DNA of 64,000 nucleotides from an uncultured Gammaproteobacteria bacterium (lineage in GTDB: Bacteria; Patescibacteriota; Microgenomatia; CAZETR01): the NCBI GenBank assembly GCA_964514545.1, contig CAZETR010000033.1, positions 1,954 to 65,953 on the forward strand. The letters are read 5' to 3'. Position 1 is the first letter of the stretch, and the number at the start of each line of letters is the position of its first letter. Shown piece by piece: positions 7,396-28,293 of this stretch. The notes beneath the pieces are model-generated. The model made no database searches. It was given only the letters and a program-made list of their open reading frames with translations, and was not told where the DNA came from. A program made the position numbers and the translations under genes.

Positions 7396-8570
7396 GCCTC
7401 CTCCAAAAGAGCCGAAACCGTTTTTCCAATCCCATCCCGCCAGACTTCTAAATTGATCTTGTCTCCCACTTTATGACCTGAAATTATCTTGGCCAAGCTA
7501 CTCTCATCGTCACCGACGCGAGTTCCATCAATCTTGATAATTATATCCCCTTCTGCAATTCCCGCTTTATCGGCCGGCGAACCCGAGACAACCTCCTGCA
7601 CAAATGCCCCCTGTGGAATCTCGTTTAAAATCGCGGTCTTGCGGTCGACAATCCGATACTTAACTCCCAAAAAGGGGCGGGAGAACTTACCCGTATTATT
7701 AAAATTTGCGATCGATTCGCGAACTAAGTTGATCGGCAGAGCAAAACCTACATTCTGGGCCTGGGAAGCAACTGCTGCGTTGACACCAATCACCTCGCCG
7801 GAACTATTTAAAAGCGGCCCCCCGCTATTTCCCGGGTTAATCGCGGCGTCGGTCTGGATCACATTATCCAGCCTCTCAGCGTCGCCAAACGGATCACCAG
7901 CAGTAATTCCCCGCCCGAGACCGGAGATAACTCCGGTAGTCACGGTGTTTCTAAACTCTCCCAGCGCGGTCCCTATTGCCACGACAAATTGACCCACTTT
8001 AAGCTTACTCGAATCTCCCAGGACAACGGGTTTTAACCCCATCGCGTTAATCTTGATAATTGCCAGGTCGTTTGCCGGATCCCGGTAAATCTTCTGCACC
8101 TCAAATGCCTTGTCGCCACTTAGAAACACTTGATACTTAGAGCTTGTATCCGAAACTACGTGTTTGTTCGTCACAATCAGTCCGTCTGCGCTCACAATAA
8201 ACCCAGTACCTATATCCTGCTCCATCTTTTGGTCCTGACCACGACTAGGCATCCGCGGCACCCCAAAGAAATCGCTAAACGGATCAGAACCGCCAAACAA
8301 ATCGGTGGCTCTTTGAGTTCTCTTAATTCCTACAGTGACAACAGACGGTGACGCTTTATCGACAACGTCTATGACGACAGACTCCTCTGAAAGTACCCTC
8401 CTCGTCTCTCCGGGGAGCGCAGTCTGAGCTACTTTTCTCGGAAACCATCTGTCCAGGAGTCTGTACCCCAGTACCCGGTCACCTATAGCCCCACCCAGAA
8501 TAGCTCCTGCCAGAACCACAACGCCGGAGACCCAAATCAAAATATTCTTTCGCTGGAACTTTATATCCAT
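7389..8570 (-). CDS. HtrA/DegP-family serine protease with PDZ domain
   Basis: Trypsin-like catalytic region 'GNSGGPLLNSSGEVIGVN', N-terminal TM, C-terminal PDZ. Confidence 0.8.
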   Translation of the reverse strand: MDIKFQRKNILIWVSGVVVLAGAILGGAIGDRVLGYRLLDRWFPRKVAQTALPGETRRVLSEESVVIDVVDKASPSVVTVGIKRTQRATDLFGGSDPFSDFFGVPRMPSRGQDQKMEQDIGTGFIVSADGLIVTNKHVVSDTSSKYQVFLSGDKAFEVQKIYRDPANDLAIIKINAMGLKPVVLGDSSKLKVGQFVVAIGTALGEFRNTVTTGVISGLGRGITAGDPFGDAERLDNVIQTDAAINPGNSGGPLLNSSGEVIGVNAAVASQAQNVGFALPINLVRESIANFNNTGKFSRPFLGVKYRIVDRKTAILNEIPQGAFVQEVVSGSPADKAGIAEGDIIIKIDGTRVGDDESSLAKIISGHKVGDKINLEVWRDGIGKTVSALLEEAQ

Positions 8571-9796: not shown

Positions 9797-9841
9797 GTCT
9801 TAAAGCATACCGCACCCAACCCAACCTGTCACGAAGAAAAA

Positions 9842-10081
9842 CTACACACCGCTGACAAAAGGCAACATCGCGAGATGCCTAGCTCTCTTGATAGCCACAG
9901 CCACACGCCTCTGGTGTTTGGAACACACGCCGCTTAGATCCCCGCCCAATATTTTGGCCCGCTCGGAAATCAGCCTTCCCAAAACATCAGTATCTTTATA
10001 GCTAGGCACAGTTCCACTGTCGCAGTATGTACACTTGCGGTTTCTAACCAGTATCCTTTTTTTCTTTTTTTGTGGAATCAT
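9842..10081 (-). CDS. rpsR: 30S ribosomal protein S18
   Basis: …CTYC…KDTDVLGRLISERAKI…HLAMLPF signature; part of rpsF-ssb-rpsR operon. Confidence 0.9.
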   Translation of the reverse strand: MIPQKKKKRILVRNRKCTYCDSGTVPSYKDTDVLGRLISERAKILGGDLSGVCSKHQRRVAVAIKRARHLAMLPFVSGV

Positions 10082-10684: not shown

Positions 10685-11024
10685 CTGTGTCTTTCTTTTC
10701 GGTGCTATTAATTACTTTTCTATTTCTCACCCTTCTGGGCTTGGACTTATCCGCCTTTACTAGTAAATATCTTAGCATACCTTCTTCAATTTTTACCCGG
10801 CGCTCTATCCTGCCAACCTCACCCGCCGGCATTGACAACTCTAAGTAATGATATACCCCCTCGCTTATTTTTTGGATAGGGTAAGCAAGAGATCTTTTAC
10901 CCCACTCCTCCTTTTTACTTAATTTTCCCTTAGCCTGAAGCACCAACTTATCTATCTCTTCGATTATTTTGGCAGCCGCTCCCGACGTAGGAGAAAACAC
11001 CAAGGTTAATTCGTAATCAGTCAT
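10674..11024 (-). CDS. rpsF: 30S ribosomal protein S6
   Basis: MTDYELTLVFSP… S6 N-terminus; operon context. Confidence 0.85.
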   Translation of the reverse strand: MTDYELTLVFSPTSGAAAKIIEEIDKLVLQAKGKLSKKEEWGKRSLAYPIQKISEGVYHYLELSMPAGEVGRIERRVKIEEGMLRYLLVKADKSKPRRVRNRKVINSTEKKDTDVK

Positions 11025-12881: not shown

Positions 12882-13394
12882 CTATATAAACAAAGCAATC
12901 AATATCCCGTCGTATCCAGAACGCATGTATCCGTAATCTTTAGGTTGACTGCCAATGAATTCCGTTATCCTTTTCGTTGCCTCATTAAATACCTCCCTAT
13001 AAGAAACCGAGTAGGGTGCAAAGTAATCAATTATCTTTCCATTCTTTAATTTAAATCTATACATCTGATACCCTCTCATGCCGGGACCAGTCGTCCGAGC
13101 CCTTCTCACACCCCACTCTGTGATATCTGACACCCCCATTTCAACTTGTTTATGAAAAAACATCCATAAGTTTACAAACTTAAAACCATCTTTTTGCTTC
13201 AAATCAATCCTCATAAATAAAAACGTGACGAGTAGCTTCAAAAAACCACTAATGACTACCAACGAAAACACCAAACTCGCTAAGGACCATGATTCTCGAA
13301 GCAGTGAAAACAAGAGTAGGACTAGTATTCCGACCAGCAAAATTCCAAACCCCCAAACCACATACCTTGTAAATCTGTCTGGATAAATATACAT
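12882..13394 (-). CDS. hypothetical membrane protein
   Basis: Two N-terminal TM helices; no motif. Confidence 0.35.
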   Translation of the reverse strand: MYIYPDRFTRYVVWGFGILLVGILVLLLFSLLRESWSLASLVFSLVVISGFLKLLVTFLFMRIDLKQKDGFKFVNLWMFFHKQVEMGVSDITEWGVRRARTTGPGMRGYQMYRFKLKNGKIIDYFAPYSVSYREVFNEATKRITEFIGSQPKDYGYMRSGYDGILIALFI

Positions 13395-14807: not shown

Positions 14808-17777
14808 CTATTTCAAAACCTTAAACTTGGCCTTGCTCCTGGCAGTTCCGTTCGCATTCGTTACTGATACATACCCAGTCGTGGCCCCACGCGGAACCTG
14901 AACGGTTATCGACCTGTCATTTACAATTATTGTCTTTGCTTGATCCAAATTCATGATAACCATAACAGGTCCGTGTCTGAACCCAGATCCAACTATCTTA
15001 ATCTCCGCTCCTGGTTTTGCGCTGTTGGGAACAAAACCATCAATCACCGGCTGAACGGGTGGAGTTGAAGTAATCGTTGTTGCCGGGGACGGACCGGGAG
15101 TTAACATTCGAGTAGGTGAAGGAACTGGAGGCGTAAGGACAACTGTTGGTGTCGGGACTACAGAAACAAGAGGAGTTGGCGTAGAAACAGGAGGAATATA
15201 GTCAAACGGCTTATAGTAGATTAATACCCTGCCTCGGTTTAAGTCGGGAATGTATAAATTATCATCTTCATCGAAAACTGCTGAATATGGCTGAGAATAA
15301 AAATCCCTCAACTTGTAATCAGGGTTAATGCTCGTTTTAAGCGTCTGGACCGGATCAGTATAAAGTCCGGGGAAGGGGGGCCAGGTTCCCCAGACATTGT
15401 AACCTATCGCCATCTGATTTCTGGAATTAAACGCCGGCTTCCACGCTGCGACTTTCGGCGAGACCAGAGTCGCGTCAGGCCCCATTAGTGCTCTATCCGT
15501 AATCCCGTCGAACATGTTTTTATCAAACATCAGGATTCTCTTATTGCCGTGAAATTCCAATGAATTGTCATTTACCCACACATTTCCCAATCTATCCAGA
15601 GTAACCCCCCCAGGTTTGCAAACCGTGTTTGTAGCAGCCCCAGTCGGTTCTGCAGTCCCTGAGTAATTATTAAGCGCCGGATCCCTGTTACAGGAGGCGT
15701 CTGTTGCATTTGCCTGCCCGAGAATCACATCGACAACCGGGCTTGTCAACGGATCACGAACCCTAATCACTCTATGCGTATTATCCGAAGCCTGAGTTAG
15801 CCACAGATATTTACCGTCGGATGTTACATCTATACCCCAAAAATCATCATTAAAACCCCATTTTATTTCTCCCCCACCAAGAACAGGTAACGGCCTTTCG
15901 GAAGAGATAACTCCACGAGTAACCGGCTGAGCTCCGCTAACCAACGGTAGGTCATAAACATCTACTGTCGATTTTCTAACTACGAACATGTGGTTGCTGT
16001 CAGCCGTAATCATTCCAATCCCCCACGGGTCCCTATCTTCAAAACCGCTTATTCCTGCATATCCGTTCGCCGGCTGACCACTGGAAAGAGTTTTCGCATC
16101 GTTCCAAAACAATAATCTGTAAGAATCAGCGACAATAAATTGATTATTTTTAACCATAACCGCATGAGGAGAATCAAGCCCTTTATTGCTACGATAATTT
16201 AACCCTTCCGGAGGAGAAAACAACTTCTTGTCAGCCGAATAAATAAATCCGGGGTGAATTGTGGGGATCGGAGCCGGAAATCTCCACACGTCCTGCCAAG
16301 ACGAAGAGGCAGACACAAAGATATTGCCATCGGTGTCAAACCCAAAGGAACCATACGCTTCACACATATTTGAAGAGCAATTACCGTCCTTGTCGGGATT
16401 AACACATTGTAAGTTGGGCGTAACCGACCCACACTGAAGATTCTGCTGCAACGAATCCTTAAACAACACCTTATCAACTGCAGTTCCTTCTCTGTTCCAA
16501 TGAGTCAACATCTGGTTAAACCTCTCCAAAATCCACACCCCATCACCGGATGGATCAAACTCAATGGAAAGCGGACCCTTTATCCCGGTCCCGAAAGTTG
16601 ACGAAGCTGACATGCCGCTTGTAAACGGAGGCTTAAATATTGTTATTCTCCCGGTATTCTCGAGTTCGTGACCTTTTTCTACCACATACAAGTCCCCCTC
16701 CGGACTAAATCTAACGGCAGCCGGCTCATTCATCTGGTTCAGGCCAGTACCCCGGGTTCTGGTCGAAAAGCGCTGCTGCCCAAGTACCAAATCCGCGGTC
16801 TTTGATATCTCTCCAGAGTCGTTTACAGGAAATCTCAATACCCGATGGTTTGAAGAGTCGGCCACCCACAAGTTACCCGTTTTATCAATCTCAACACCTG
16901 CCTGAAAGCTATCCTGAAATGCTTGATTAAATCCCATACACAAAGTGCCTGACGTCGGCGAAGCGTCTCCACCGCCTCCGTTACACTCGTTTCCGGTAAA
17001 ATCATTTTGTCCCCACACTTCATCTGCAACAGTATCTGTAGTAAATGGAGAGTTAAACTTTAAAACTCTATTGTTATAAAAGTCAGGAACGAACAGATTA
17101 CCATTTGAATCAACCGCCATGCTGGCTGACGAACCACCCTCGAGCGGACTGGGCAAGACACCGGGTAACAAACAAAGAGACCCAGAAGAGGCCTTTTTCC
17201 TAGCCGGATAATATTCGTTATTACTATCCCCGTTGCACGCCGAGTAGCCATAAAGGCCCGGTTGGCCTAGCACCAAATCAGCGGGCTTTTTATCAATCAG
17301 TTGGCATTTGGAATCTTCACATTCAGAATTGCTGGTGCAGTTTCTGAGAACCCCATTCTTATTACAAGTTCCCAGATAGGAATGCCCCAATATTCTATTA
17401 TTGCCACCGTCATAAACGTAAATTCTATTTGGCTTGACTGACCTATCGACAACAACTCCGCCTGGGTTAAACAACTTAAAGGGAGCTACTTCGTTTATGG
17501 CCATCTGGTTAAAATCAATCTGGCCAATGACTACGTCGGCCCACAAATCTCCTGGTTTACCCCTCTCGACCGAAGATAAGGCAACAGAAGAAGCGCTAGC
17601 CTTAAGCTCTCTTTTTTTCTTTACAGCATGCGCACCAAATCCCACGCCAACTACGAGAAGCAGCATCAATGCGGGAACAAGATATTTCTTCGAGTTTGAG
17701 AACCAGTTAAATAGCCGGTCGGGAAACTTTGAGGAAGATTGAACCAAAACTTGACCGTCGTTATCTATCTCCACCAT
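14808..17777 (-). CDS. large secreted/surface protein with NHL (β-propeller) repeats and C-terminal IPT/TIG domain
   Basis: N-terminal TM/signal, repeated 'NNRVLKFN / NHRVLRFP' NHL motifs, Pro/Thr-rich linker, C-terminal Ig-like 'PVIDGFVPNSAKPGAEIKIVGSGF…'. Confidence 0.6.
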   Translation of the reverse strand: MVEIDNDGQVLVQSSSKFPDRLFNWFSNSKKYLVPALMLLLVVGVGFGAHAVKKKRELKASASSVALSSVERGKPGDLWADVVIGQIDFNQMAINEVAPFKLFNPGGVVVDRSVKPNRIYVYDGGNNRILGHSYLGTCNKNGVLRNCTSNSECEDSKCQLIDKKPADLVLGQPGLYGYSACNGDSNNEYYPARKKASSGSLCLLPGVLPSPLEGGSSASMAVDSNGNLFVPDFYNNRVLKFNSPFTTDTVADEVWGQNDFTGNECNGGGGDASPTSGTLCMGFNQAFQDSFQAGVEIDKTGNLWVADSSNHRVLRFPVNDSGEISKTADLVLGQQRFSTRTRGTGLNQMNEPAAVRFSPEGDLYVVEKGHELENTGRITIFKPPFTSGMSASSTFGTGIKGPLSIEFDPSGDGVWILERFNQMLTHWNREGTAVDKVLFKDSLQQNLQCGSVTPNLQCVNPDKDGNCSSNMCEAYGSFGFDTDGNIFVSASSSWQDVWRFPAPIPTIHPGFIYSADKKLFSPPEGLNYRSNKGLDSPHAVMVKNNQFIVADSYRLLFWNDAKTLSSGQPANGYAGISGFEDRDPWGIGMITADSNHMFVVRKSTVDVYDLPLVSGAQPVTRGVISSERPLPVLGGGEIKWGFNDDFWGIDVTSDGKYLWLTQASDNTHRVIRVRDPLTSPVVDVILGQANATDASCNRDPALNNYSGTAEPTGAATNTVCKPGGVTLDRLGNVWVNDNSLEFHGNKRILMFDKNMFDGITDRALMGPDATLVSPKVAAWKPAFNSRNQMAIGYNVWGTWPPFPGLYTDPVQTLKTSINPDYKLRDFYSQPYSAVFDEDDNLYIPDLNRGRVLIYYKPFDYIPPVSTPTPLVSVVPTPTVVLTPPVPSPTRMLTPGPSPATTITSTPPVQPVIDGFVPNSAKPGAEIKIVGSGFRHGPVMVIMNLDQAKTIIVNDRSITVQVPRGATTGYVSVTNANGTARSKAKFKVLK

Positions 17778-17816
17778 CCCATGGTACAGCCAACTCGCTC
17801 AAATTTGCAACTACAC

Positions 17817-18998
17817 TCAAAGTGCAACTGCTCCCAGTTTTGACTTTGCTAAAATCCGCAGTGAAATTAACAAACAAGTGAAAACTACCAAACTTCCAAA
17901 CAGAAACGGCGCCGGAATAGCTATTGTCGCCACAATTCCGCCGGCAATTGGTCCAAATATCATTCCCAAACTGACATAGGACGAATTAACTCCCAATATC
18001 TCACCCTGGCTTTTGGCATCGACCTCTTTGGACAAAAGGGATGAGATAACCGGAGCCACAAAACCATTTACCAGCGAATGAAGCAGAGAAACTGTAATAA
18101 ACCAAGCGAAGCTCCGGGAGAAAAAGAGGAGGGCAAACGAAACCACGCCGAAAGACAGGGATAAACTTAACGTTTTTCGATCTCCAAATTTTTTAGTAAT
18201 CCTGGGGATAATCAGAAGCTGCGAAACCAGCCCCATAATTCCAAACACGGTAAAGCTCTCCGATATCTGGGTTGGGGAAAGATGCAACACGCGAACGGAA
18301 ACAGGCTGGTAGGCAAAGATAAATAACGAAAAGGCAAATGAATAAAGCAGCGAAACTAGTAAGGTCATGCCGACATTTTTATCGACAACTGCCCGGGCCA
18401 ATTTCCGCAGATCAATTAGCTGGCCATGCGCAACCTGGCCTATATTTTTATTAGTCTCGGGCAGAATAAACCAAGTCAATAGAATTGCAATAAACGTCAT
18501 ACTGGCTGCGACCAAAAACGGTACTGAAAGACCAAATCCCAAAGTCAAAGCTGAAATCGCCGGACCGAAAATAAATCCGAACCCGAACGAGGCCCCGATT
18601 ATTCCAAATCCGCGGGCCCGATCCTTGTGCTCAGTCGTATCGGAAATAACCGCCGAGGCCACAGGAATATTGCCGGCAGTAATCCCGTCCAATGCCCGGG
18701 CCAAAAAGAGAAAAACTGCGCTCGGGGCAAACGCCATCATTAGAAAGGAAATCATGGTTCCGGCCAGCGAGATGAGAAGCAATGGTTTTCGCCCATACTG
18801 GTCCGACAACCTGCCGATAAGTGGGGTTGCCAGGAATTGAAACAGAGAGAAAGTCGCAAACAGTAACCCGTTTTGAAAATCGTTTAGCCCAAACTTACGG
18901 GAATATGAATAAAGAATAGGGATGATAATCCCATATCCCAAGGCATTTACAATCGCAATGACAGATACGGCCAGTAGACTCTTGTTGTTTTTAAACAC
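17817..18998 (-). CDS. MFS transporter
   Basis: 12 TM profile with MFS loop motif 'GRLSDQYGRKPLL'. Confidence 0.75.
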   Translation of the reverse strand: MFKNNKSLLAVSVIAIVNALGYGIIIPILYSYSRKFGLNDFQNGLLFATFSLFQFLATPLIGRLSDQYGRKPLLLISLAGTMISFLMMAFAPSAVFLFLARALDGITAGNIPVASAVISDTTEHKDRARGFGIIGASFGFGFIFGPAISALTLGFGLSVPFLVAASMTFIAILLTWFILPETNKNIGQVAHGQLIDLRKLARAVVDKNVGMTLLVSLLYSFAFSLFIFAYQPVSVRVLHLSPTQISESFTVFGIMGLVSQLLIIPRITKKFGDRKTLSLSLSFGVVSFALLFFSRSFAWFITVSLLHSLVNGFVAPVISSLLSKEVDAKSQGEILGVNSSYVSLGMIFGPIAGGIVATIAIPAPFLFGSLVVFTCLLISLRILAKSKLGAVAL

Positions 18999-19097
18999 AA
19001 TCTCCTATGTTAACTCAAGCACAAACCAGCTGTCTACCCCAAAGACGGCAAAAATCCCGCCCAAAGGCGGGATTTTTAACTCCTTAAATTCAAGTCT

Positions 19098-19334
19098 TTA
19101 CATTGCAGGAGCTGCCGGCGCTGCCGGAGTCTCCATAACTTCTGTCGCTGTTTCACACATCTTGGCAACATCCTCCATCGAAGGAACTGGCTGACCCACG
19201 TGCTTTTCACCAAAGTGGGCGTTGACTGCATCCTGAGTCATCATGGCCTTAAAAGCTGCCACGGCTGCCGGTTGATCTGCTGCATCGACAAACATGTCAT
19301 CTCCGCAGGTACAAGTCATTTTAAATTTCTTCAT
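19098..19334 (-). CDS. small Cys-containing protein, DUF1059-like (putative metal-binding)
   Basis: MKKFKMTCTCGDD… pattern and size resemble DUF1059 family; intermediate GC. Confidence 0.35.
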   Translation of the reverse strand: MKKFKMTCTCGDDMFVDAADQPAAVAAFKAMMTQDAVNAHFGEKHVGQPVPSMEDVAKMCETATEVMETPAAPAAPAM

Positions 19335-19408
19335 TCAATTTCACCCCCTCTCAGTTTTGAAACTGATCCCAGTCTACGCTAAAACAAGTCCTCATTCAAC
19401 CACAAAAA

Positions 19409-19434
19409 GCCCCGGCTGGAAAACCAGCCGGGGC
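19409..19434 (-). terminator. rho-independent terminator (11-bp GC stem, AAAA loop, T5 tail on minus strand)
   Basis: GCCCCGGCTGG-AAAA-CCAGCCGGGGC perfect hairpin; minus-strand reading is followed by CTTTTTGTGG; immediately downstream of minus-strand gene 19611-20726. Confidence 0.8.
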
Positions 19435-19610
19435 CGGGGGTCTGCTCTGGAAACCAGGCAAACCCGCGATTTTAGAGATCCTTCTCCAATTGCCGGACAG
19501 GAACTACCCCGCGCGGCGGCAAATACGCCGCGAGGATGGCCCCGCCGACAGTGAAAATGAGCAGCGGTACCAAGATAGCTAAAACCACCAGATTCATGGG
19601 GTTTAGCCTA

Positions 19611-20726
19611 CTAGGGCGCGGGGGCTGTCGGGGTGACAGTAATGATAGCCCCAGGGAACATCACCTGAAGCACCGCCCGGACCACCTCCGGATCTTGGCC
19701 TGTAGTTGCTGAGAAAATCGTCCTCAAGACTTTCGCCTGGGACTCCGCATCGAGTTCGGCTTGCTGTCGACCGAACGCGGACTGCGTTGCCTCAATACTC
19801 TGACGCAGTTGCAGATTTTCTTGCTGCTGCTGGAGGCGCTCCCCTTCCAAACGCTCTTTCTCCACTTCGGACTGCGCCGCAGACTGACTATCACGGTAGG
19901 CCTGATCGCCAATTTCGACCCCGCGGATGAACACCGCGAGGATTTCAATCGGCTGACCGGCGACGGCCTTATCGATAATGCCTTTATAGATATCCGCCAG
20001 GCGAGCGCGCCCATCGGCAGACAAGATGTCATTCTGAGTCAATCCCGAACTCATCGCCCGGGCCGCACGCAGCGGCGATCCGATGAAAATCTGGGTTGCC
20101 GCGTCAGCAGAGGCCATCTCCCACAAGGCCTTGGCCGTATCATCGGTGTAAACGAATCTGAAAGACACGTCCACGTCCACGTTCGCACCGACCGGGTTGT
20201 CGTTAACTGACGCGCCCGTTAGCGTAGTTTCACACTTAAAACTGGCGCAAGCATCGGGATTGGTCAGCAGATCGGGGCGCAGAGTTCTGTAGCGGAGGAC
20301 GCCTGCAGGAAACAACAGTGTCTGTGAAACATCAATGTTGTACGTCCCCTGACTCAGAATCCGGTACTTCGTCTGGCTTTCGCGGTAAACCGCAACCAAG
20401 CCAGTCTGCACCACTGCCGCAGGAACCAGGAGAACCCAGGATTGGGCAATCTCCCGGTATTGGCCAGACGGAAGAATCTGGCCCTTGTAGAGGCCGAACT
20501 GTCCCTGCGGGACGTCTGCGATCGGCTCAACGATATCTTGGGACCCGACCGAATCGCCCGGCCGGAACAGTTGGGTGTAGGGATCCTGCTCGTTGCCTGG
20601 CGTGAACTGCTGATTGGGCGTGTAGCCGATCTCACCCGTTTGCACAACCTGGGGCCCGCCCGCACAGGACGACGCCAAAAGCGAGAGTAATACAAGCAGC
20701 GCAAACACGATCGATTTCCTGCTCAT
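19611..20726 (-). CDS. lipoprotein with SPFH/band-7 (prohibitin-like) domain
   Basis: Lipobox signal (LLASSCAGG), C-terminal SPFH-like region and coiled-coil (…EKERLEGERLQQQQENLQL…); high-GC island. Confidence 0.55.
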   Translation of the reverse strand: MSRKSIVFALLVLLSLLASSCAGGPQVVQTGEIGYTPNQQFTPGNEQDPYTQLFRPGDSVGSQDIVEPIADVPQGQFGLYKGQILPSGQYREIAQSWVLLVPAAVVQTGLVAVYRESQTKYRILSQGTYNIDVSQTLLFPAGVLRYRTLRPDLLTNPDACASFKCETTLTGASVNDNPVGANVDVDVSFRFVYTDDTAKALWEMASADAATQIFIGSPLRAARAMSSGLTQNDILSADGRARLADIYKGIIDKAVAGQPIEILAVFIRGVEIGDQAYRDSQSAAQSEVEKERLEGERLQQQQENLQLRQSIEATQSAFGRQQAELDAESQAKVLRTIFSATTGQDPEVVRAVLQVMFPGAIITVTPTAPAP

Positions 20727-21104
20727 TCCACATCCTCCATGATGTTGTTCAAGTAATTGCTGAAAAATCGATAGTCTTTCCGACGCAATCGCTCGATAAA
20801 TCTCCTCCGTTTCTTTGAAGAAATAGTAGTCAGCAATTCATTCAAGCTGCCATTCTAAGCACAAGTTATTTATGCCAAAATTGGCAGCCTGAAAGTATAA
20901 ATTGGATTTCAAAGTGCAACGATAGAGTTGACAGCACATCGACAAGATATGCGGTCAATATATCGGGCAATCCGGGTGCCAGGTCTCTACCAGCCGCGGT
21001 TTCCCGCAACTGTCAGAATACCCGACACCCGTTTTTTCAGTCAGAGGATTGCTCCCCCAGCCGGATTGCCGTGTTGTTACTTGAGATTCAAACTGGGAAC
21101 GATG

Positions 21105-22286
21105 TTACGCAGCGCGCATGATCTCGACAAGCTGGGCGGACAGCTTGTTCTCCGCCTCATGCAGTTCGCCACGACCGCGCTCGACTTCCTGACGCGCCTT
21201 TCGGTTGGCGGCGGCCGCATCGCCCAGCGCCTTCATGAGCGTCTCACCGCTCGTAACAATGGCATCAGCCATCCGATTGAGGGTCTCGACACGCAAGGCC
21301 ATCTGGCCCAGGAGCTGGGAACTTTGAGCGATCATCTGCTCATAGGCTTCCGCAGAGTCCACCGCTTGTTTGTTCATGAAGTCAATGCCCGTCTGGAGAG
21401 CGAGTTGGGCAATTTCGGCTTGCAGGGCATCGAGCTGCAGAACGACGTCGGTCTTCCACTGCGGAATGCCCATCTCCAAGAAATCGCCCAGGCCAAGCGC
21501 CACAATCGCATTGGCATTGCGCTGGCCGAGAAACCGACGCTCGTTCATGTTGCCCATGTGAATGTACGCCGGCAGCGACCCGAGCCGCTTGATGAGCAAC
21601 GGGCTGATGCCTTCGAGCCGTTCACGCTCGCCGCTGTCCACGGCCAACTTGAGGGCTTCGAGGCGATCGGTCAGCAGGTCCTTCAAGTCCTCCATGCCCG
21701 CACACAGATACAACAACTTATCCGTGCGCCCGTCGGCCTCTTCGGCCAACTGGCCATCGCGGACCACGGCCTCGATCACCAGATCGTACTGCCGCTGCAG
21801 AATGTCAATGTCCTTCTGCATCACCGCGAGGACGGTCTGAAACTGCTGGAGCGCTTCGCGGATCTCCTCGGAGATCGCGCGCACCCAGTTGACGACTTCG
21901 CGCGCCTTCGCCTTGCCCTGTGCGACTTTCTCGACAAAGCGCTGGTCAACTTTCGGCAACCTGCCGTTGACTTCGCGCATCTTGCGCGTGGCGCCCTGCA
22001 CGCCCTGGCTGACAACACCACCGTCGCGCATCTTCATGTTTTCGAGCATGGCATCCAAGCCGGGCGTCTGCTGAACATCGAAACCCTTGATCATCTCGAT
22101 GAAGAACGTGACACCGAAGTTGGAGTCCTCGAGCGCTTTCAACGCCCAGGCCTTGACTTCATCGCGCTTTCCTTGAGACAAGAGAGCACGCGCAGAGAAC
22201 TGAGGGCCGGGCGTAGTGACAGCGGCTTGGACGACTGGGACAAGTTGCTGTGAAGCAGCGGTCGGAAGGGGTAACGTGGTAGTCAT
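21105..22286 (-). CDS. TelA-like (toxic-anion-resistance / YaaN family) coiled-coil protein
   Basis: ~390 aa all-helical coiled-coil protein with TelA-like layout and C-terminal 'IPQWK…' region comparable to B. subtilis YaaN; neighbour is XpaC-like as in Bacillus xpaC-yaaN. Confidence 0.5.
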   Translation of the reverse strand: MTTTLPLPTAASQQLVPVVQAAVTTPGPQFSARALLSQGKRDEVKAWALKALEDSNFGVTFFIEMIKGFDVQQTPGLDAMLENMKMRDGGVVSQGVQGATRKMREVNGRLPKVDQRFVEKVAQGKAKAREVVNWVRAISEEIREALQQFQTVLAVMQKDIDILQRQYDLVIEAVVRDGQLAEEADGRTDKLLYLCAGMEDLKDLLTDRLEALKLAVDSGERERLEGISPLLIKRLGSLPAYIHMGNMNERRFLGQRNANAIVALGLGDFLEMGIPQWKTDVVLQLDALQAEIAQLALQTGIDFMNKQAVDSAEAYEQMIAQSSQLLGQMALRVETLNRMADAIVTSGETLMKALGDAAAANRKARQEVERGRGELHEAENKLSAQLVEIMRAA

Positions 22287-22345
22287 GCTTATTCTCCTTA
22301 TCTGACTAAGTCTGAACGTTGGAACGAGGAATATTGCTCGCTATT

Positions 22346-23458
22346 TTACTGAATAGCGGTCTTGATGGCCTCAAACACGTCGCGCTTGGGTTCGCCCACT
22401 GACTGGGGATTCGCCACGAGCCACGGAACGTCAGTGTCGCCCGGCTTGGCAGCGATGCCGCCGGCTGCAGTTCGCATACCGTACTGGCTCCAACCGAGAG
22501 CTTGCAACGTTTCATCCGTGCCAAAGATTTCGACGAGACGGTCCCCATTCTCTGTCAGACTGCCAAGCACGTGATCCGTGCTCACAGTCCACTCGGGGTA
22601 AATTCCGACGATCAGGTTGCCGTCGGACTCGCGCCGCGACTGTGGCAACTTGTTGCGCCAGCCTAGGTAGAGCGACTCAGAGCTAGCAGCCAACGGGATC
22701 GAGCCACTCTGGTAGACATAATCCTCGAACCACTCAGGACTAGACTCGGCCTGCCGAGGTTGCATAGCCCAGTTGGCTACCAGATTCGGAAGTACCGTAG
22801 GCAGGCCATTCAGATCGCACACGAGGCCGCCTTCGACACCGCCCGGCATCTGGTAATTGCAGAGCAAGAACAGGTGTTGTAAGCCACCGCTGCTTTTGGC
22901 CGGGTTAGTGTAACGGATATTCACTCGGCCAGGAATGGGCACGCCGATGTCCACCCACGCCTCCTGACTATTCATCGCCTCGATCACCGGCGCCATTTTC
23001 ATGTAGTAGGCGCCGTTCTTCCCATAGACGATGCCGCTGTCCAAAAGCGGTTGGAGAAACAGATCCCGACGGGTATAAAACAGGCCGTAGGTGCGAAAGA
23101 TTGTGTCGTGTTTTCGGACAAGCCCCGGTTTGGCGGTAGTGAAATCTTCGTACCCGCTTGCCGACCCCGGCCAGATACAATCAATGCCGGTCAGATCCTT
23201 GTCCTTCATCTCGAAGGTTCCGACGCTGATCGACTCCACATCGATATTGTAGTCAGCCAGTAGGTATTCCTTCACTTTCGCGTCGCGCAGGAAGACCTGG
23301 CCACCGAGGCAGGTAACCTTCATCGCCGGCCCGAGCGTGGGCGTCGGCGTCGGCAGGTTGGACTTTGCCTGACCCGCCAGCGAAAACGCGATGATAAGGA
23401 ACGTGGCAACGACGACAAGAACGCCAAGTCCGATAAGGAGACGTTTGTTCATGTTCAT
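22346..23458 (-). CDS. membrane-anchored periplasmic-binding-protein-like protein (paralogous to N-terminal half of the vWA protein)
   Basis: N-terminal TM then Pro/Thr linker; shared pattern with ORF 24131-25723 N-domain (K..L.D.GI…DV.W..S……RTY). Confidence 0.4.
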   Translation of the reverse strand: MNMNKRLLIGLGVLVVVATFLIIAFSLAGQAKSNLPTPTPTLGPAMKVTCLGGQVFLRDAKVKEYLLADYNIDVESISVGTFEMKDKDLTGIDCIWPGSASGYEDFTTAKPGLVRKHDTIFRTYGLFYTRRDLFLQPLLDSGIVYGKNGAYYMKMAPVIEAMNSQEAWVDIGVPIPGRVNIRYTNPAKSSGGLQHLFLLCNYQMPGGVEGGLVCDLNGLPTVLPNLVANWAMQPRQAESSPEWFEDYVYQSGSIPLAASSESLYLGWRNKLPQSRRESDGNLIVGIYPEWTVSTDHVLGSLTENGDRLVEIFGTDETLQALGWSQYGMRTAAGGIAAKPGDTDVPWLVANPQSVGEPKRDVFEAIKTAIQ

Positions 23459-24111
23459 GGCTTACTCCTCTCCGAGTCTTCGATGATGCTCCGAAGTAAT
23501 TCCGCAGCCCGCCCCGCCTTTGAGGTTGTGGTGGCAAGCTGTCGGAGCAAATTCAATTCGCTTTCGGCCGCGAGCAGCTTGCGCGCCCGGCCTTCGTCAA
23601 TACCGACTTCCAGAGCTTCAAGCGCTGTTTCCGTCTCCGGAATGTGCTGAGTTTCCAACTCCGTCATCAACGCGGCCATCTGGGAACGACTCAACGTTAC
23701 TTCACCGGTGAGCACACCCAGAACGGTCAGAAAACTATCTGAAAGCTTTTCCAGCCGCCGCACGTGAGTACCAATACCGGTGAGATCGCGCGTAACGAGC
23801 TTGGCAGCCATGCGAGCGATGTGAACCGCAATCGCCTGCAGCGCATCCTTCAATTTCGGTGAGCGCTGACTTTCAGCGATACGCTTGATTTGCGTTGCAA
23901 TCCGAGCCGTCCGCCCCAACGATTCCTCCAACGCGATGACGTCATCGGACTTGCGTAGAAACAGAAAGTACGTAACCAGCAGGCCAGCGGACGGGACAAG
24001 CCCAACCGCAACCCGAATGATTGGCGCACCGTATGGAAACAGAAATGCTGTGGCAACCATCGCGATGAGTGCTGCAGCCACAGCTAGAGAGTCAAGGATC
24101 TTTTGATTCAT
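23455..24111 (-). CDS. XpaC-like (5-bromo-4-chloroindolyl phosphate hydrolysis family) membrane protein
   Basis: Two N-terminal TM helices followed by helical cytoplasmic domain, ~210 aa, 4-nt overlap with downstream gene; classic partner of TelA/YaaN. Confidence 0.4.
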   Translation of the reverse strand: MNQKILDSLAVAAALIAMVATAFLFPYGAPIIRVAVGLVPSAGLLVTYFLFLRKSDDVIALEESLGRTARIATQIKRIAESQRSPKLKDALQAIAVHIARMAAKLVTRDLTGIGTHVRRLEKLSDSFLTVLGVLTGEVTLSRSQMAALMTELETQHIPETETALEALEVGIDEGRARKLLAAESELNLLRQLATTTSKAGRAAELLRSIIEDSERSKP

Positions 24112-24130
24112 GCAACACTCTCCTTGGCAA

Positions 24131-25723
24131 CTAATTGTTGCCCTTGAACAGGCGGAAGCACTTCACAAGCGCCTCCTGCCCGCCGCGGCCGTCACAGACC
24201 GCGCCGTGCGTGTAGTCGGCGATTTCTTTCATCGCCCCTTCGCTGGCAGAGCCGAAAAGGATCGTGTAGATGGGCACATTGCTTTGATCACCCTCGTAAG
24301 TCCTCTTCAGAGAGCCAAACGACGTGCCGACCGCGTTGTGCTCACCGTCGGTCAGAAGAATAACTGCCGGAAGCTGTCCAGGCTGAGCGCCCGTCGAAAC
24401 AATCTCCACCGCTCGTTGGGCGCATCCATAGATGTTGGTTCCGCCGGCAAGTTGCTGATTCTCAACGCTTGACAGGAGCGAGGCAAACTGCACAGAATCA
24501 TTGCCTTGAATTGAATACTCAGCCAGAACATTCTCGGCAAAAGCAAGCACGTAAGTGGTGTCGCCGCCTGACGCCTGCAAGAGGTACTGCGCCGCCAGGG
24601 TTTGATCCAGCAGGAGTTTCATCGCCGCCCTGAGTTGAGTCTCACCAGTCCCCTGCATGCTACCGGAGTAGTCAAGGCAAAAGACTGTGAACGACGGCTT
24701 GCGTAAAACAGTCTGGTACATATCGAGGGCGCGGGCAATTATCGTGTCTTTTGGCAATTCGATCAGCGCAAACTCGGTTTGCGCATCGATGCCCCACGCC
24801 GGATTGAAAACGCTCGGATCGGGATTCTCCACCCGCATACCGACGCGCCCTGTCCGGAACCCGAGAGACTGCAGTTTGGCACGCACGTCGTCACTGGTGA
24901 GGTATTCGGCCAGTTGTTTGAACTGGGCCTGCTTTTCCTCACTGGCGCCCGACACCCACCCAAGCTGGTAGTTCTGCATGCCGACAGCGTTGCTGACGTA
25001 AAAGACCGTCATCGGCGCCGCACCCTTGCCGACCAGTTCTTGATTGGTCGCGATGAGCATGCTTTCCGGCAGCACTATAGCGTTGTATTGCCCGCCACCG
25101 GAAGTGCGGTCCGCCACGAATGCAGCTTTGAGGTCGCTCGCGTTGCTGGCAGTCCGGCTCACCGCGGATAGAATCGTCCGCAGCGCGTCGACATCACCGC
25201 CCGTCGCCTGCCACAAGGCAAGGTAGAAATTGGCGCCGGCATCGTCCTGCGACGCACTCGGCATGGCCAGCTTGACCTTGCCCGCATTGATCGCAGCAAT
25301 GATGTCATTGACCGTGATGCCCGTCTGAGAATTCCAGCCAAGTTCACTGACCAGACCGGGATCCATGGCGAACACCACGTAGGTGCGCATCACCGAGGTC
25401 TTATCCCGGACAAGGCTTCCCGGCAACCAGATCGGTGAGGCCGCCCAGAAGACATCCACGTCACCGGGGTTCTGTGCCGTATACGCCAGGACCTTAAGTT
25501 TGACCTCAACAGAGCCCAGATAGCGTGTAGATACCGCAACTCCGGTCTTTTCAGTGAACGCTTTGAAAATGCCAGCGTCCTCGAGAAGCTTCACCTCACT
25601 CGCCGCATTGATGCGCAGAGAGCTCGGATCAGCCGGCGGAGTGACATTGGGCAACAAATCAGGCCCGCACGCCACGACAGCCAGATACAGTAGTACGACG
25701 GGAAACAGACATAACCGCTTCAT
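24131..25723 (-). CDS. lipoprotein with N-terminal PBP-like domain and C-terminal von Willebrand factor A (vWA) domain
   Basis: Lipobox (LAVVACG), MIDAS motif 'DYSGSM', second vWA motif '…LLTDGEHN…'. Confidence 0.7.
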   Translation of the reverse strand: MKRLCLFPVVLLYLAVVACGPDLLPNVTPPADPSSLRINAASEVKLLEDAGIFKAFTEKTGVAVSTRYLGSVEVKLKVLAYTAQNPGDVDVFWAASPIWLPGSLVRDKTSVMRTYVVFAMDPGLVSELGWNSQTGITVNDIIAAINAGKVKLAMPSASQDDAGANFYLALWQATGGDVDALRTILSAVSRTASNASDLKAAFVADRTSGGGQYNAIVLPESMLIATNQELVGKGAAPMTVFYVSNAVGMQNYQLGWVSGASEEKQAQFKQLAEYLTSDDVRAKLQSLGFRTGRVGMRVENPDPSVFNPAWGIDAQTEFALIELPKDTIIARALDMYQTVLRKPSFTVFCLDYSGSMQGTGETQLRAAMKLLLDQTLAAQYLLQASGGDTTYVLAFAENVLAEYSIQGNDSVQFASLLSSVENQQLAGGTNIYGCAQRAVEIVSTGAQPGQLPAVILLTDGEHNAVGTSFGSLKRTYEGDQSNVPIYTILFGSASEGAMKEIADYTHGAVCDGRGGQEALVKCFRLFKGNN

Positions 25724-25940
25724 GTAGCCTCCTTAACTATCTAATAGCTAATGGACCAGTAGGTAAGACTATTGCCAATATCTTCGGGAAATTTTCCCTC
25801 CTTTGAATCTCAAGTTGTTAAAGAGCTAATTAGGCTGTAACTCCACAAAAAAGCACCGCAAAAGTGGCGCTTGTTCTGTGAAGTTTACATCGGGCGCGAT
25901 TTTATCAGCTTCCAACCCCTAAGTCAAATCCTATGGGTTA

Positions 25941-26723
25941 CTATTTTCCTATCGCCATCCAGTTTACCTTGACCGAAGAGTTAACGCCAGCTTTATATAC
26001 GAATTGAGTATTAGATACGCTTCTAATTAAAACCGAAAATGGAGTTCCCGTCACCGAGATAGGAGTCGCAAGTACAACGGGAGCTGATGTGTATGGCTGG
26101 CTAAAGATCACCGTTCCCTTGCCAGTAGCGTCTGATGTAGAAACACCGAAAAGCAGAGTGTTACCTGATTCAACATTTAGGGCTAAGGGTCCTGTTGCTC
26201 CGGTTGCTCCAATAGATCCAGTAGCCCCTGTCGGCCCTACCGGACCTGCAACTCCAATCGGCCCGGTCACACCGGTTGTCCCCAACAGACCTGTCGCCCC
26301 GGTTGCTCCATCTGCCCCCGCCACTCCCGTCGGTCCCGTAGTTCCCATATATCCGGCAATTCCCGAGAATCCAGTATAACCGAACAGTCCTGTGAAGCCG
26401 GTATATCCAGCCTGCCCGGACGGTCCTGTCGGTCCGGTTGTTCCAGTGGGTCCAGTGCGACCCGCAAAACCGGAAGCACCCGTGTAGCCGGCCATCCCGG
26501 TTGGTCCGGTAGCGCCCGTTAACCCAGTCGGGCCGGTTTTACCCGCTGACCCAGACATACCCGTAAATCCAGCCGGACCGGACGGACCCGTAGGACCGGT
26601 CGCTCCAGTCGGACCTGTAATTCCTGAGGAACCAGTAAAACCAGCCTGCTGAGCCAAAGCAACTCTCGCAAAAACACCAATTCCCAACACTCCGAATACT
26701 AAAACTATAATTAAGCGCTTCAT
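25941..26723 (-). CDS. secreted collagen-like triple-helix repeat protein ((G-X-T)n, BclA-like) with ~80-aa C-terminal globular domain
   Basis: Signal peptide, ~50 uninterrupted Gly-X-Thr/Pro triplets ([19 protein letters not shown]…), non-repetitive C-terminus. Confidence 0.75.
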
Positions 26724-26868
26724 TTAAACCAATTCTTTCACTTGAATGTATTACGCTCTAAGTTACCTGTCAAGTAGTATCGACCTCCTGCCAAAGAGCA
26801 ACTATCTAAACTCCGTTCCGAGATTCTTAACCACATTGACCCCGTAATGAAGGTGCTCAAACTAACTT

Positions 26869-28293
26869 CTATTTTATCTTTACATTAGGTCCTTGATCCG
26901 AATCATGAACTTCGTATCCCAATTTCTCTATTTCACCTCTTAATTTATCCGCCTGGGCCCAATCCTTGGCTTGTCTCGCCTTCTCTCGCCTCGCAACCAA
27001 CACAGCTACTTCTTCTGAGATTTGGGATTTGGGATTTGGGATTTGGGATAAGCGCAAGCCCAGCACCTCATCCCAACTCATCAGCAGGTCCCATTTATCC
27101 CGATCCGGCAACATGCTCTTTCCCATCTCCCATACCACTGCCATCGCCTGGGGCATATTCAGGTCATCCTCGACGGCCAAACGAAACCTATTTGTAAATT
27201 TGTCAACCAGTTTGGTTTTTGAGTCTGACACTATTTTTCTTATATCCGCATTTTCCCTCCAACCCTGCACCAACGTGACTAGCCTAACTCGGGCATTTCT
27301 GGCCGCGTCCAGAGATTCAAACGTCATATTTAACTGATCCCGGTAATGAGCGGTCAGGTAAAGATAGCGCAAGTCCAACGGATCGTAGCCCCTTTGCACT
27401 AAATCTTGAAGGGTATAAAAGTTTGCGGTACTCTTGGCCATCTTTTTACCGTTCACTAGAATAAACGCTCCGTGAACCCAATACTTCACAAACGGCTTGC
27501 CTGTCGCGGCCTCCGACTGGGCAATCTCATTGGGATGGTGGGTAGAGCGCAAATCCTCTCCACCCACGTGCAGATCAAAAGACTCACCCAAATATTTCAT
27601 GCTCATAGCCGAGCACTCGATATGCCATCCCGGAAACCCCAACCCCCAGGGACTATCCCACTCCATTTGTCGCTTAGCCAGCCCCGAGCTTGCCGAAGGA
27701 CTAAACTTCCACAGCGCAAAATCCCGTGGGTTTCGCTTCTCGGGATTTACCTCGACCCTCGCGCCCTCCCGAATCTCATCCAGTGTCGAAAGCTCACCGT
27801 AATCCGGAAATTTGGAGGTGTCAAAGTACACCCCGTCGCGGGTTTTATAAGCATAGCCCTTTTCCTCGAGTTTCTTTACCAGCTCAATTTGCTCATCTGT
27901 GTGGTCCGTGGCCTTGGCAAACAAGCGCGGTTGAATGAGATTCAACTCCCCAAAATCCTTGAGAAACGCCTGAGTATAAAATTCCGCAATATCCCAAACC
28001 GTCTTCCCTTCTCTTTTAGCTGACTCCTCCATCCGGTCGTGGCCTGTATCAGAATCTCCCAAATTATCCCCAGTCAAGTGTCCCACGTCAGTCAGATTCA
28101 TAATATAGTCAACCTCGTATCCGAAAAACTTCAGAGCCCGAATCAGTAAATCCCCCAAAGTGTAGGTACGGAAATTGCCGATGTGGGCAAAGGAGTAAAC
28201 AGTCGGTCCGCAGGTGTATATGCCAACCTTGCCTGGATTAATCGGCGCAAATTCTTCCAGCTTTCGTGTCAAAGAGTTAAACAATCTCATCAC
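26869..28293 (-). CDS. cysS: cysteinyl-tRNA synthetase
   Basis: Class I motifs: 'CGPTVYSFAHIGN' (HIGH region), 'KMAKS' (KMSKS); contains in-frame heptamer-repeat insertion (…SQIPNPKSQIS…). Confidence 0.9.
   Translation of the reverse strand: MMRLFNSLTRKLEEFAPINPGKVGIYTCGPTVYSFAHIGNFRTYTLGDLLIRALKFFGYEVDYIMNLTDVGHLTGDNLGDSDTGHDRMEESAKREGKTVWDIAEFYTQAFLKDFGELNLIQPRLFAKATDHTDEQIELVKKLEEKGYAYKTRDGVYFDTSKFPDYGELSTLDEIREGARVEVNPEKRNPRDFALWKFSPSASSGLAKRQMEWDSPWGLGFPGWHIECSAMSMKYLGESFDLHVGGEDLRSTHHPNEIAQSEAATGKPFVKYWVHGAFILVNGKKMAKSTANFYTLQDLVQRGYDPLDLRYLYLTAHYRDQLNMTFESLDAARNARVRLVTLVQGWRENADIRKIVSDSKTKLVDKFTNRFRLAVEDDLNMPQAMAVVWEMGKSMLPDRDKWDLLMSWDEVLGLRLSQIPNPKSQISEEVAVLVARREKARQAKDWAQADKLRGEIEKLGYEVHDSDQGPNVKIK

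Follow-up and report, generated by a model that had tools for sequence, protein, structure and literature searches.

How did a GC-rich gene cluster resembling a TelA/XpaC membrane stress module come to lie in a genome of the candidate phyla radiation (CPR), and what might such a module do there? The question was raised by an earlier note on a 64-kb stretch of contig CAZETR010000033.1 (hereafter the window, positions 1-64000), which described an island of foreign composition at 19400-25760 encoding TelA, XpaC, von Willebrand factor A (vWA), periplasmic-binding-protein-like and SPFH proteins. In our analysis the island appears to be a genuine, laterally acquired composite of two independent transcription units in a Microgenomates-type chromosome, the first unit being a widespread, extended xpaC-telA operon; we give this reading a probability of roughly 0.6. 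Unit 1 (about 20961-25927) carries four genes, here called V, X, P and T in order of transcription, and unit 2 (19398-20726) carries the gene of an SPFH lipoprotein. Related loci are denoted by L numbers.

Composition, borders and assembly of the island

The five open reading frames (ORFs) of the island (24131-25723, 23455-24111, 22346-23458, 21105-22286 and 19611-20726) were all on the minus strand and were followed by a strong intrinsic terminator, as the earlier note had stated. The terminator (19435..19408, minus strand) has a 12-bp stem with 10 GC pairs, a 4-nt loop and a U-run; it closes the SPFH unit and forms the low-coordinate border of the island.

When GC content and tetranucleotide usage were recomputed across the contig, the signature was not uniform and the island stood out. 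GC was 57.0% within 19400-25760 and 47.1% outside, a difference of 10 points, and means over 60-nt lines gave nearly the same values (56.8% and 47.1%). Among all windows of 6.36 kb, the one with the highest GC began at 19401, showing that the island is the GC maximum of the contig. The GC contrast reported previously was therefore real, but its magnitude (65% versus 42%) was not. GC at third codon positions (GC3) was 0.60-0.76 in the five island genes compared with 0.488 ± 0.047 (maximum 0.572) in 56 other genes (z = 2.3 to 5.7), and GC at second positions (GC2) was ordinary (0.38-0.44 versus 0.395). Between the strand-symmetrised tetranucleotide profiles of the island and of the remaining contig, r was 0.065, compared with 0.83-0.94 for windows that do not overlap the island. 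Nearly all genes of the window are on the minus strand, and GC skew was strongly negative throughout (mostly -0.15 to -0.35) save in the island, where it was -0.03 to -0.10. GC, GC3, GC skew and tetranucleotides were thus all atypical of the contig, as expected by composition of a classical genomic island, and the description of this DNA as foreign was borne out. The composition within the island was itself uneven. A 378-nt spacer (20727-21104) divides the four-gene module from the SPFH gene, and GC dropped to a host-like 43.5% at 20801-21000 inside it.

Misassembly of the island is unlikely, because a 10,556-bp contig in the independent Logan assembly of run ERR3478687 (L001) was identical to positions 16493-27048 of the window and spanned both island borders. 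The surrounding contig carries core chromosomal genes (HisRS, CysRS, ProRS, RecR, DnaX, TopA, SHMT, MreB, PBP2, YchF, HtrA, CtpA and RseP). The best named matches of the host topoisomerase I came from the Microgenomates group, Shapirobacteria, Amesbacteria and Patescibacteria, in agreement with the CPR-like host proposed before, and since the best match overall was only 64% identical, the host belongs to a sparsely sampled CPR lineage.

The V-X-P-T operon and the separate SPFH gene

V (24131-25723, minus strand) is a 530-aa lipoprotein with the lipobox VVAC19, in which a type II solute-binding protein (SBP) domain (residues ~35-337) is fused to a vWA domain with a complete metal ion-dependent adhesion site (MIDAS). 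It matched Pfam SBP_bac_11 (PF13531) with 45.9 bits (cut-off 25), and VWA, VWA_2 and VWA_3 were all above their own cut-offs. In the MIDAS motif (DxSxS...T...D), D351, S355, T429 and D459 were invariant and S353 was nearly invariant across 28 homologues; the lipobox cysteine was likewise nearly invariant in the family. The AlphaFold model of V (pLDDT 90.3) had the two-lobed fold of type II periplasmic solute-binding proteins, with AfuA, FbpA/FutA, ModA and PEB3 as top Foldseek matches (E = 1e-11 to 1e-9). The neighbours place the SBP part among type II binding proteins whose ligands are ferric ion, oxyanions or phosphorylated compounds. A sequence search of the PDB with V and T gave nothing useful, and an NCBIfam search gave no useful names.

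P (22346-23458, minus strand; 370 aa) consists of an N-terminal transmembrane (TM) anchor and a free paralogue of the solute-binding domain of V. It had no Pfam match. The relationship to V was detected by BLASTP (E = 2e-4) and confirmed when the P family was aligned with the V family in hhalign (99.1% probability, E = 5e-19, 293 columns). An S/K-S-N-S-G motif was kept in both families and lies at a helix start in the V model.

X (23455-24111, minus strand) is a 218-aa protein of the XpaC family that begins with two TM helices and continues in a helical domain predicted to be cytoplasmic. X had no direct Pfam match, and its membership comes from profile comparison and synteny, not from Pfam's own threshold: 38 of the 47 proteins at its syntenic position matched PF10112 (XpaC / Halogen_Hydrol; best 3.7e-40), and hhalign of the window X subgroup against the PF10112-type members gave 95.0% probability (E = 4e-8, 176 columns). 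T (21105-22286, minus strand) is a 393-aa protein of the TelA family with no TM segment or signal peptide, so placed by prediction in the cytoplasm. Its own match to Pfam TelA (PF05816) was below the cut-off (20.8 versus 30 bits; E = 2.3e-4; profile positions 32-130). However, PF05816 was matched by 25 of 26 proteins at the syntenic position (best 5.7e-121), and hhalign of the T subgroup with these PF05816-positive proteins gave 95.2% probability (E = 2.8e-8, 339 columns, the whole length of the subgroup profile), which together place T in the TelA family. A 441-aa plus-strand ORF (20928-22253) antisense to the TelA gene was discarded as a shadow ORF of GC-rich coding DNA; naive longest-ORF calling would prefer it to the true TelA gene.

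Relatives of V were found in at least 518 GTDB species genomes from many phyla in a search with an alignment of 12 sequences, and 157 database relatives were recovered at E < 1e-3 among the candidates scored. The SBP-vWA fusion, which the earlier note had not recognised as a described architecture, is therefore widespread and carries the NCBI name 'substrate-binding and vWA domain-containing protein'. Operon conservation was read from the best 80 loci of the at least 518 species genomes. Most of the 80 had the order V (~530-550 aa), X (~200 aa, with TM helices), P (~355 aa) and T (~365-380 aa), and this order recurred in Bacilli, Clostridia, cable bacteria, Bacteroidota, Spirochaetes, Chloroflexi and Acidobacteriota. 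Among the Bacilli, it was present in Niallia and Oceanobacillus; in the Paenibacillus loci V and P were present, and X and T were not detected. P lay beside V in 73 of 81 other loci. The closer metagenome relatives L083, L084 and L086 had the order V-X-P-T, and L092 had V-X-P up to the contig end. In a complete Woesebacteria chromosome (L004, protein identities confirmed by hhalign) and in L336 all four parts were present in the order V-P / X-T, with X and T adjacent in one unit. Recurrence in Woesebacteria and several CPR-like contigs shows that the module, contrary to what had been supposed, is not unexpected in a CPR genome. The most fitting description is that of a widespread, uncharacterised extension of the xpaC-telA pair.

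The simple pair is known as xpaC/yaaN in B. subtilis, as lmo1966-lmo1967 in L. monocytogenes and from E. faecium, where a two-TM XpaC and a soluble TelA are encoded in one operon. X and T of the window are likewise found in one co-directional cluster. However, the window has a four-gene operon in which P stands between X and T and which encodes two SBP-fold proteins, predicted to be extracytoplasmic, one of them vWA-fused; and its X and T are too divergent for Pfam thresholds. Annotated carriers of V-X-P-T (Candidatus Electrothrix YB6, Puia dinghuensis, Niallia sp. and Paenibacillus chartarius) share the architecture of V, its lipobox cysteine and its MIDAS, and the gene order matched in Niallia and Electrothrix; T was not detected beside the V of P. 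chartarius, and the Puia locus lay outside the gene-order comparison. In contrast to these, the window V, just 32-37% identical to them, belongs to a CPR/Chloroflexia-associated clade and is accompanied by clade-specific flanking inverted repeats and a conserved terminator hairpin. A vWA protein is also found together with TelA in Ter clusters (TerY/TerF vWA, TelA), where the setting is again membrane-associated stress (PMC7824862). Pfam detected no Ter domains (TerD, TerC or TerB) in the five island proteins or in the products of four flanking genes, and the window vWA domain is fused to an SBP domain and is expected from its signal sequence to be extracytoplasmic. Ter-type vWA proteins have been described as forming sub-membrane structures.

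The SPFH lipoprotein (19611-20726, minus strand; 371 aa) has the lipobox LASSC21 and an N-terminal domain rich in beta strands, followed by an SPFH domain and a helix of 65 residues. It passed the Band_7 threshold (26.1 versus 23.6 bits), as did 16 of 24 of its relatives, and the succession of an SPFH alpha/beta domain and a coiled-coil helix places it in the SPFH / Band 7 family. All domain calls of the earlier note (TelA, XpaC-like, vWA, two paralogous SBP-fold domains and SPFH) thus survived the profile searches, vWA and Band_7 by Pfam itself and X and T by profile-profile comparison and synteny. The family of the SPFH lipoprotein is rare, with 29 representatives including itself (28 relatives) in an exhaustive search of 1.84 billion proteins; a word-indexed search of 5.8 billion proteins returned the protein itself only. 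A lipoprotein signal was found at the N-terminus of nearly all listed full-length members. The best Foldseek match was the major vault protein (MVP), which also covered the beta-rich N-terminal part. The window protein differs from the SPFH cage proteins (HflK/C, prohibitin, erlin, stomatin, flotillin) and MVP in its anchor (an N-terminal lipobox, not a TM helix), in a 150-residue beta domain that precedes the SPFH domain and in the tiny size of its family. It also has no NfeD/FtsH partner gene in the island. Only a 41-aa single-TM peptide follows it, encoded 14 nt after the SPFH stop codon (19471-19596, minus strand) and called as a gene in L001; no homologue of the peptide was present in the loci fetched around V homologues.

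The SPFH gene was previously thought to extend the TelA/XpaC system. However, no SPFH relative was present in any other locus fetched around V homologues, the gene lies behind the V-X-P-T terminator hairpin and the 378-nt spacer, and V-X-P-T was not near SPFH homologues where context was visible, on contigs of 11 kb and 3.7 kb (L087 and L090); the 1.6-kb contigs L088 and L089 held little beyond the SPFH gene itself. The SPFH lipoprotein is therefore a separate transcription unit and not a conserved partner of V-X-P-T. Its homologues were raised in GC relative to their flanks (L088 242-1405, 0.59 versus 0.44; L090 2437-3567, 0.56 versus 0.39; L087 4374-5492, 0.45 versus 0.33), indicating that the SPFH gene is a second laterally moving gene that stands beside V-X-P-T by chance. 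GC3 of the homologues was high in L088 and L090 and host-like in L087, which suggests transfers of different ages. No inverted repeats were found bracketing the SPFH gene or its homologues.

Probable lateral origin and possible function

In a neighbour-joining tree of V, the window grouped with L091 (70% identity), then with L086, L092 and P0004. The Woesebacteria/L336 group and the L083 group followed, and a metagenome-assembled genome (MAG) of Chloroflexia and others were farther out. The nearest relatives of V (43-70% identity) were CPR-like contigs, the Woesebacteria chromosome and the Chloroflexia MAG, and V of Firmicutes and other phyla was 32-37% identical to that of the window (Firmicutes 32-36%), so the Actinobacteria or Firmicutes donor that had been expected was not found. 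A GC jump similar to that of the window was observed in several relatives. V of L091 had 58.8% GC (GC3 0.757) beside a PBP-like gene at 38.1%, the cluster of L086 had 59.9% compared with 47.5% in the sortase region, and that of L004 had 50.7% compared with 41.8% in the flanks. L092 had 61-63% GC throughout, and the cluster of L084 was without GC excess. The genomic contexts differed as well, the neighbour being a collagen-like gene in the window, a PBP-like gene in L091 and a sortase gene in L086. With the GC jump recurring while the surroundings change among close relatives, the pattern fits ancient vertical descent less well than repeated acquisition from organisms of higher GC.

Vertical inheritance of a native cluster, with its composition held by selection or amino-acid content, would agree with the presence of the module in other Microgenomates-type genomes, with the lack of mobility genes in the island and with V being at least as similar to its closest relative (70% identity) as a housekeeping protein is to its own best match (64%); a cluster GC above that of the flanks in several hosts could also be a property of the genes. 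However, the GC excess was largest at synonymous third positions (GC3 0.60-0.76 versus 0.49) with GC2 ordinary, the tetranucleotide signature and GC skew differed too, and the relatives were found in the unrelated contexts given above. Further, L084 showed no GC excess, indicating that the excess is not intrinsic to the genes. We consider vertical inheritance unlikely.

The possible function has to be sought in the arrangement of the four proteins and in what is known of XpaC and TelA. V and the SPFH lipoprotein would each be lipid-anchored outside the membrane, P would be held outside by its one TM helix, X would span the membrane twice and T would be cytoplasmic, as judged from signal and TM segments in the sequences. 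XpaC/TelA is reportedly named in a study of the sigma-W regulon of B. subtilis. TelA and XpaC influence tolerance of nisin, daptomycin and tellurite, an effect known only for the Firmicutes homologues: a Listeria lmo1967 mutant was sensitive to nisin and tellurite, and the gene was induced by bacteriocin (PMC12791056), and in E. faecium daptomycin binding and the layout of phospholipid microdomains depended on xpaC (PMC6811118). In the mechanism we infer, an extracytoplasmic ligand or adhesion sensor would be coupled to XpaC/TelA. The SBP-fold domains of V and P, at the outer face of the membrane, would bind a small ligand or an envelope component, and the MIDAS of the vWA domain would make a metal-dependent contact with a partner. 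The TM anchor of P and the paired TM helices of X would relay the state of these domains inwards to T and the cytoplasmic part of X, and these might then, in the way known from Listeria and Enterococcus, alter how the membrane is organised and how well the cell tolerates agents that damage its envelope. An anionic ligand is probable, because the S/K-S-N-S-G motif is kept in both families and the fold neighbours bind anions or metal-anion complexes. The SPFH lipoprotein would likely form an oligomeric cage or ring on the outside of the membrane, its unit sharing only foreign composition with unit 1.

V and P could instead serve an epibiotic CPR cell as surface adhesins or in attachment to its host, the MIDAS of the vWA domain and the SBP folds binding ligands on the host surface and XpaC/TelA doing no more than stabilise the membrane where the cells touch. 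In favour of this, the MIDAS of the lipoprotein V is intact, the neighbouring genes encode surface proteins (collagen-like, 25941-26723; NHL/TIG, 14808-17777), and vWA lipoproteins act as adhesins elsewhere, reportedly including CglB of Myxococcus (PMC9946355). However, the operon is common in Bacilli, Clostridia and cable bacteria and is therefore not special to epibionts, and the neighbouring surface-protein genes were host-like in composition and were not conserved beside the operon. An adhesin role of this kind seems improbable.

Anti-phage or abortive-infection defence of the Ter/TelA type is less probable again. TelA and Ter-associated vWA proteins have been tied to phage and colicin resistance by comparative genomics (PMC7824862), and defence genes are often laterally transferred and found in islands. 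However, PADLOC returned one weak match of T to the coiled-coil part of ZorA (22.8 bits) and nothing for the SPFH protein, V, X or P. Ter-family Pfam models matched none of the five island proteins, and nothing resembling a nuclease, NTPase or toxin effector was noted among the genes conserved nearby. The phenotypes established by experiment for XpaC/TelA relate to compounds that act on the envelope.

That V and P are ordinary SBPs feeding an ATP-binding cassette (ABC) importer for iron, oxyanions or sugar phosphates, with a chance linkage to TelA/XpaC, is very unlikely. The SBP_bac_11 match of V and its structural neighbours AfuA, FbpA and ModA point that way. However, no permease or ATPase was encoded among the five island proteins or adjoining the operon in the annotated loci L002, L083, L084 and L086, and the linkage to X and T holds across many phyla. 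We know of no precedent for a vWA fusion among importer SBPs, which also counts against an importer.

The least probable explanation, for which only a very small chance is left, is that assembly created a chimera or attached contaminant DNA to a CPR contig: the contig is metagenome-assembled and k-mer usage (r = 0.065) and GC3 change sharply at both borders, but L001 is identical across both junctions, the borders lie in intergenic DNA with ordinary terminators, the leader and 3' flank share non-coding elements with low-GC CPR-like loci including the complete Woesebacteria chromosome, and the same GC jump occurs in L091 and L086.

Several observations weigh against a laterally acquired composite with a sensor function. 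As to origin, the 70% identity of V to its best relative, set beside the 64% of the host topoisomerase I, leaves room by itself for vertical inheritance. The 64-kb window has no tRNA gene and hence no tRNA target for the island, no integrase was found and the genes scanned beside the island included no recombinases, and direct repeats were not found on the island's flanks; the ends of the four-gene module showed no repeat other than an inverted pair. As to function, the extracytoplasmic loop of X comprises only about 6 residues, which makes any coupling of outside to inside a conjecture, and the ligand class of the SBP domains rests on fold neighbours at 12-16% identity. A full-text literature search, which did not cover the likeliest source (Anantharaman, Iyer and Aravind 2012), found no description of the four-gene operon, and no experimental study of V or P homologues was found. 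A 2026 preprint on Actinobacteria sensing Patescibacteria dealt with different TelA and MoxR-vWA systems and was set aside as not relevant.

The four-gene form, carried by most loci examined, suggests that XpaC/TelA makes up the cytoplasmic half of a system whose extracellular half consists of ligand-binding and MIDAS adhesion domains, and the identity of the SBP ligand and of the MIDAS partner gives a testable handle on it. As regards the CPR, the island indicates that minimal genomes acquire and retain envelope modules from higher-GC donors, the same cassette being found at different sites in different low-GC hosts.

Non-coding elements and flanking genes

A sigma-70-like promoter (TTGACT-17-TAAAAT with an extended TG; 25899..25927, minus strand) is predicted upstream of V by its match to the consensus, and TTGACT-N17-TAnAnT also stood upstream of the leader hairpin in the Woesebacteria locus L004 and in L336. 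Between the promoter-like site and the operon, a hairpin with a U-run was read at 25851..25872 (minus strand), which would either terminate the upstream collagen-like gene or act as an attenuator in the leader. The tail of this hairpin was a U-run in the window and L004 and an A-run in L336; in the window, L086 and L091 a T-run followed hairpin-like sequence just upstream of the 5' copy of the repeat described below. The promoter was followed by the hairpin within about 20-35 nt, ahead of the 5' repeat, in the window (25851-25927, minus strand), L004 (~9810-9890) and L336 (~7725-7800). The leader hairpin may be an attenuator and not simply the terminator of the upstream gene.

What is new here is a co-varying inverted repeat that brackets each such transcription unit in the CPR-type clade. 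In the window, the 5' copy ACTTGAGATTCAAA (25802..25815, minus strand) lies 79 nt upstream of the V start codon, and the 3' copy TTTGAATCTCAAGT (21079..21092, minus strand), its perfect reverse complement, lies 12 nt past the TelA stop. This pair was the only 14-nt perfect inverted repeat of the region, and the repeat had just two matches in the window with one mismatch allowed. The repeat core CTTGAGATTCA recurred at the same two positions in relatives of the clade. In L083 the copies were at 9755 (upstream of V) and 14759 (just past the T stop). L004 had repeats around both of its units, at 9918 and 12798 (upstream of V and after P) and at 12936 and 14982 (upstream of X and after the TelA-like gene), and L336 had degenerate copies at 7825, ~10775-10790, ~10930-10945 and ~12960-12975. 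The upstream copy was present in L086 and L091, whose contigs stop before the 3' site. The bracket was 11-15 nt long, with the 3' copy 2-15 nt past the last stop codon and ahead of the terminator hairpin; the leader copy stood directly upstream of a GGAGG-like sequence in four of six units. The four genes thus formed two bracketed units, V-P and X-T, at 9971-14980 in L004 and 8001-12955 in L336. The Woesebacteria-type order in two bracketed units suggests that the units were reshuffled together with their flanking repeats.

The sequence of the bracket differed between units of one genome, yet the ends within each unit matched. Unit 2 of L336 had TTTTGAGATTT at both ends, and unit 1 had TCTTGAGAT at both ends with one difference that is a potential G.U pair in RNA. 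The position before the repeat core was A in both copies in the window and L083 and T in both copies in L004 and L336. Compensatory changes were found at 3-4 positions, with one G.U wobble. Over six units, 84% of cells paired and four pairs had changed on both sides, and the covariation score was 0.221 compared with 0.121 in shuffles, none of 500 of which reached 0.221; slid controls gave at most 0.08. This evidence for end-to-end covariation is suggestive only, because the sample is small, the sequences are related and the structure was derived from the same sequences. A general search for operon-bracketing inverted repeats in 27 non-CPR loci gave nothing beyond chance, indicating that the repeat is clade-specific. 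A metagenome scan with the 15-nt 5' repeat and a viral scan with the 14-nt 3' repeat gave chance matches, with no relatives of island proteins among the matches listed; the sole extended match among them (L195) appeared eukaryote-like and encoded nothing related.

As a tentative explanation, the 5' and 3' ends of the mRNA may pair through the bracket and close a loop of 1.9-4.7 kb that would control translation or stability. Pairing of a 3' untranslated region (UTR) with a 5'-UTR in bacterial mRNA is reportedly known from icaR of S. aureus, and here too a short 3'-UTR sequence is complementary to the 5' leader. The difference is that the pairing here is predicted and brackets whole operons of up to 4.7 kb; it could equally be an inverted repeat at the DNA level. 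If the mRNA ends do pair, they might, with the same reserve, form a cis-regulatory element of a kind not yet described, one carried along by a laterally mobile cassette; a functional end-to-end repeat would be a new kind of operon-level cis-element. Alternatively, the repeats could mark the two termini of a mobile cassette as inverted repeats whose similarity is maintained by recombination. The unit-specific matching of the ends argues against a shared DNA-binding regulator.

Downstream of the 3' copy, a long hairpin (20961..21070, minus strand; fold z = -4.2) with the closing stem GGCAATCCGG/CCGGATTGCC followed by CGAUAUAUU is the likely terminator of the V-X-P-T operon. Homologous hairpins were present in L083 (14805-14912), L004 (12821-12883 and 15049-15113) and L336 (~10803-10870 and ~13025-13097). 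They shared a closing stem GGCrAyC/GrTyGCC that carried compensatory changes; next came CGAU, replaced by AGAU in one L004 copy, and then a U-run or a tract rich in U and A. These non-coding blocks were near-identical across loci whose proteins share just 40-50% identity. The rest of the 378-nt spacer (20727..20960, minus strand) was structured (fold z = -5.5, for the window sequence folded alone, not its L083 counterpart) and presumably holds the SPFH gene's own promoter; one block in it, TTGCACTTTGA (20919..20909), was common to the window and L083. No Rfam family reached its gathering score in the window, and at E <= 1 the leader, spacer and repeat gave terminator-like chance matches only.

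The neighbours of the island on both sides encode surface-type proteins and are host-like in composition. On the high-coordinate side is the gene of a 260-aa collagen-like G-x-y repeat protein with a signal peptide (25941-26723, minus strand), and on the low-coordinate side that of a 989-aa NHL/TIG repeat protein (14808-17777, minus strand). Just outside the island, a small ORF (19098-19334, minus strand) without a Pfam match encodes 78 aa as listed and 65 aa in the Logan call. Its product has a C-x-C motif, and the gene is followed by a terminator-like hairpin at about 19050-19075.

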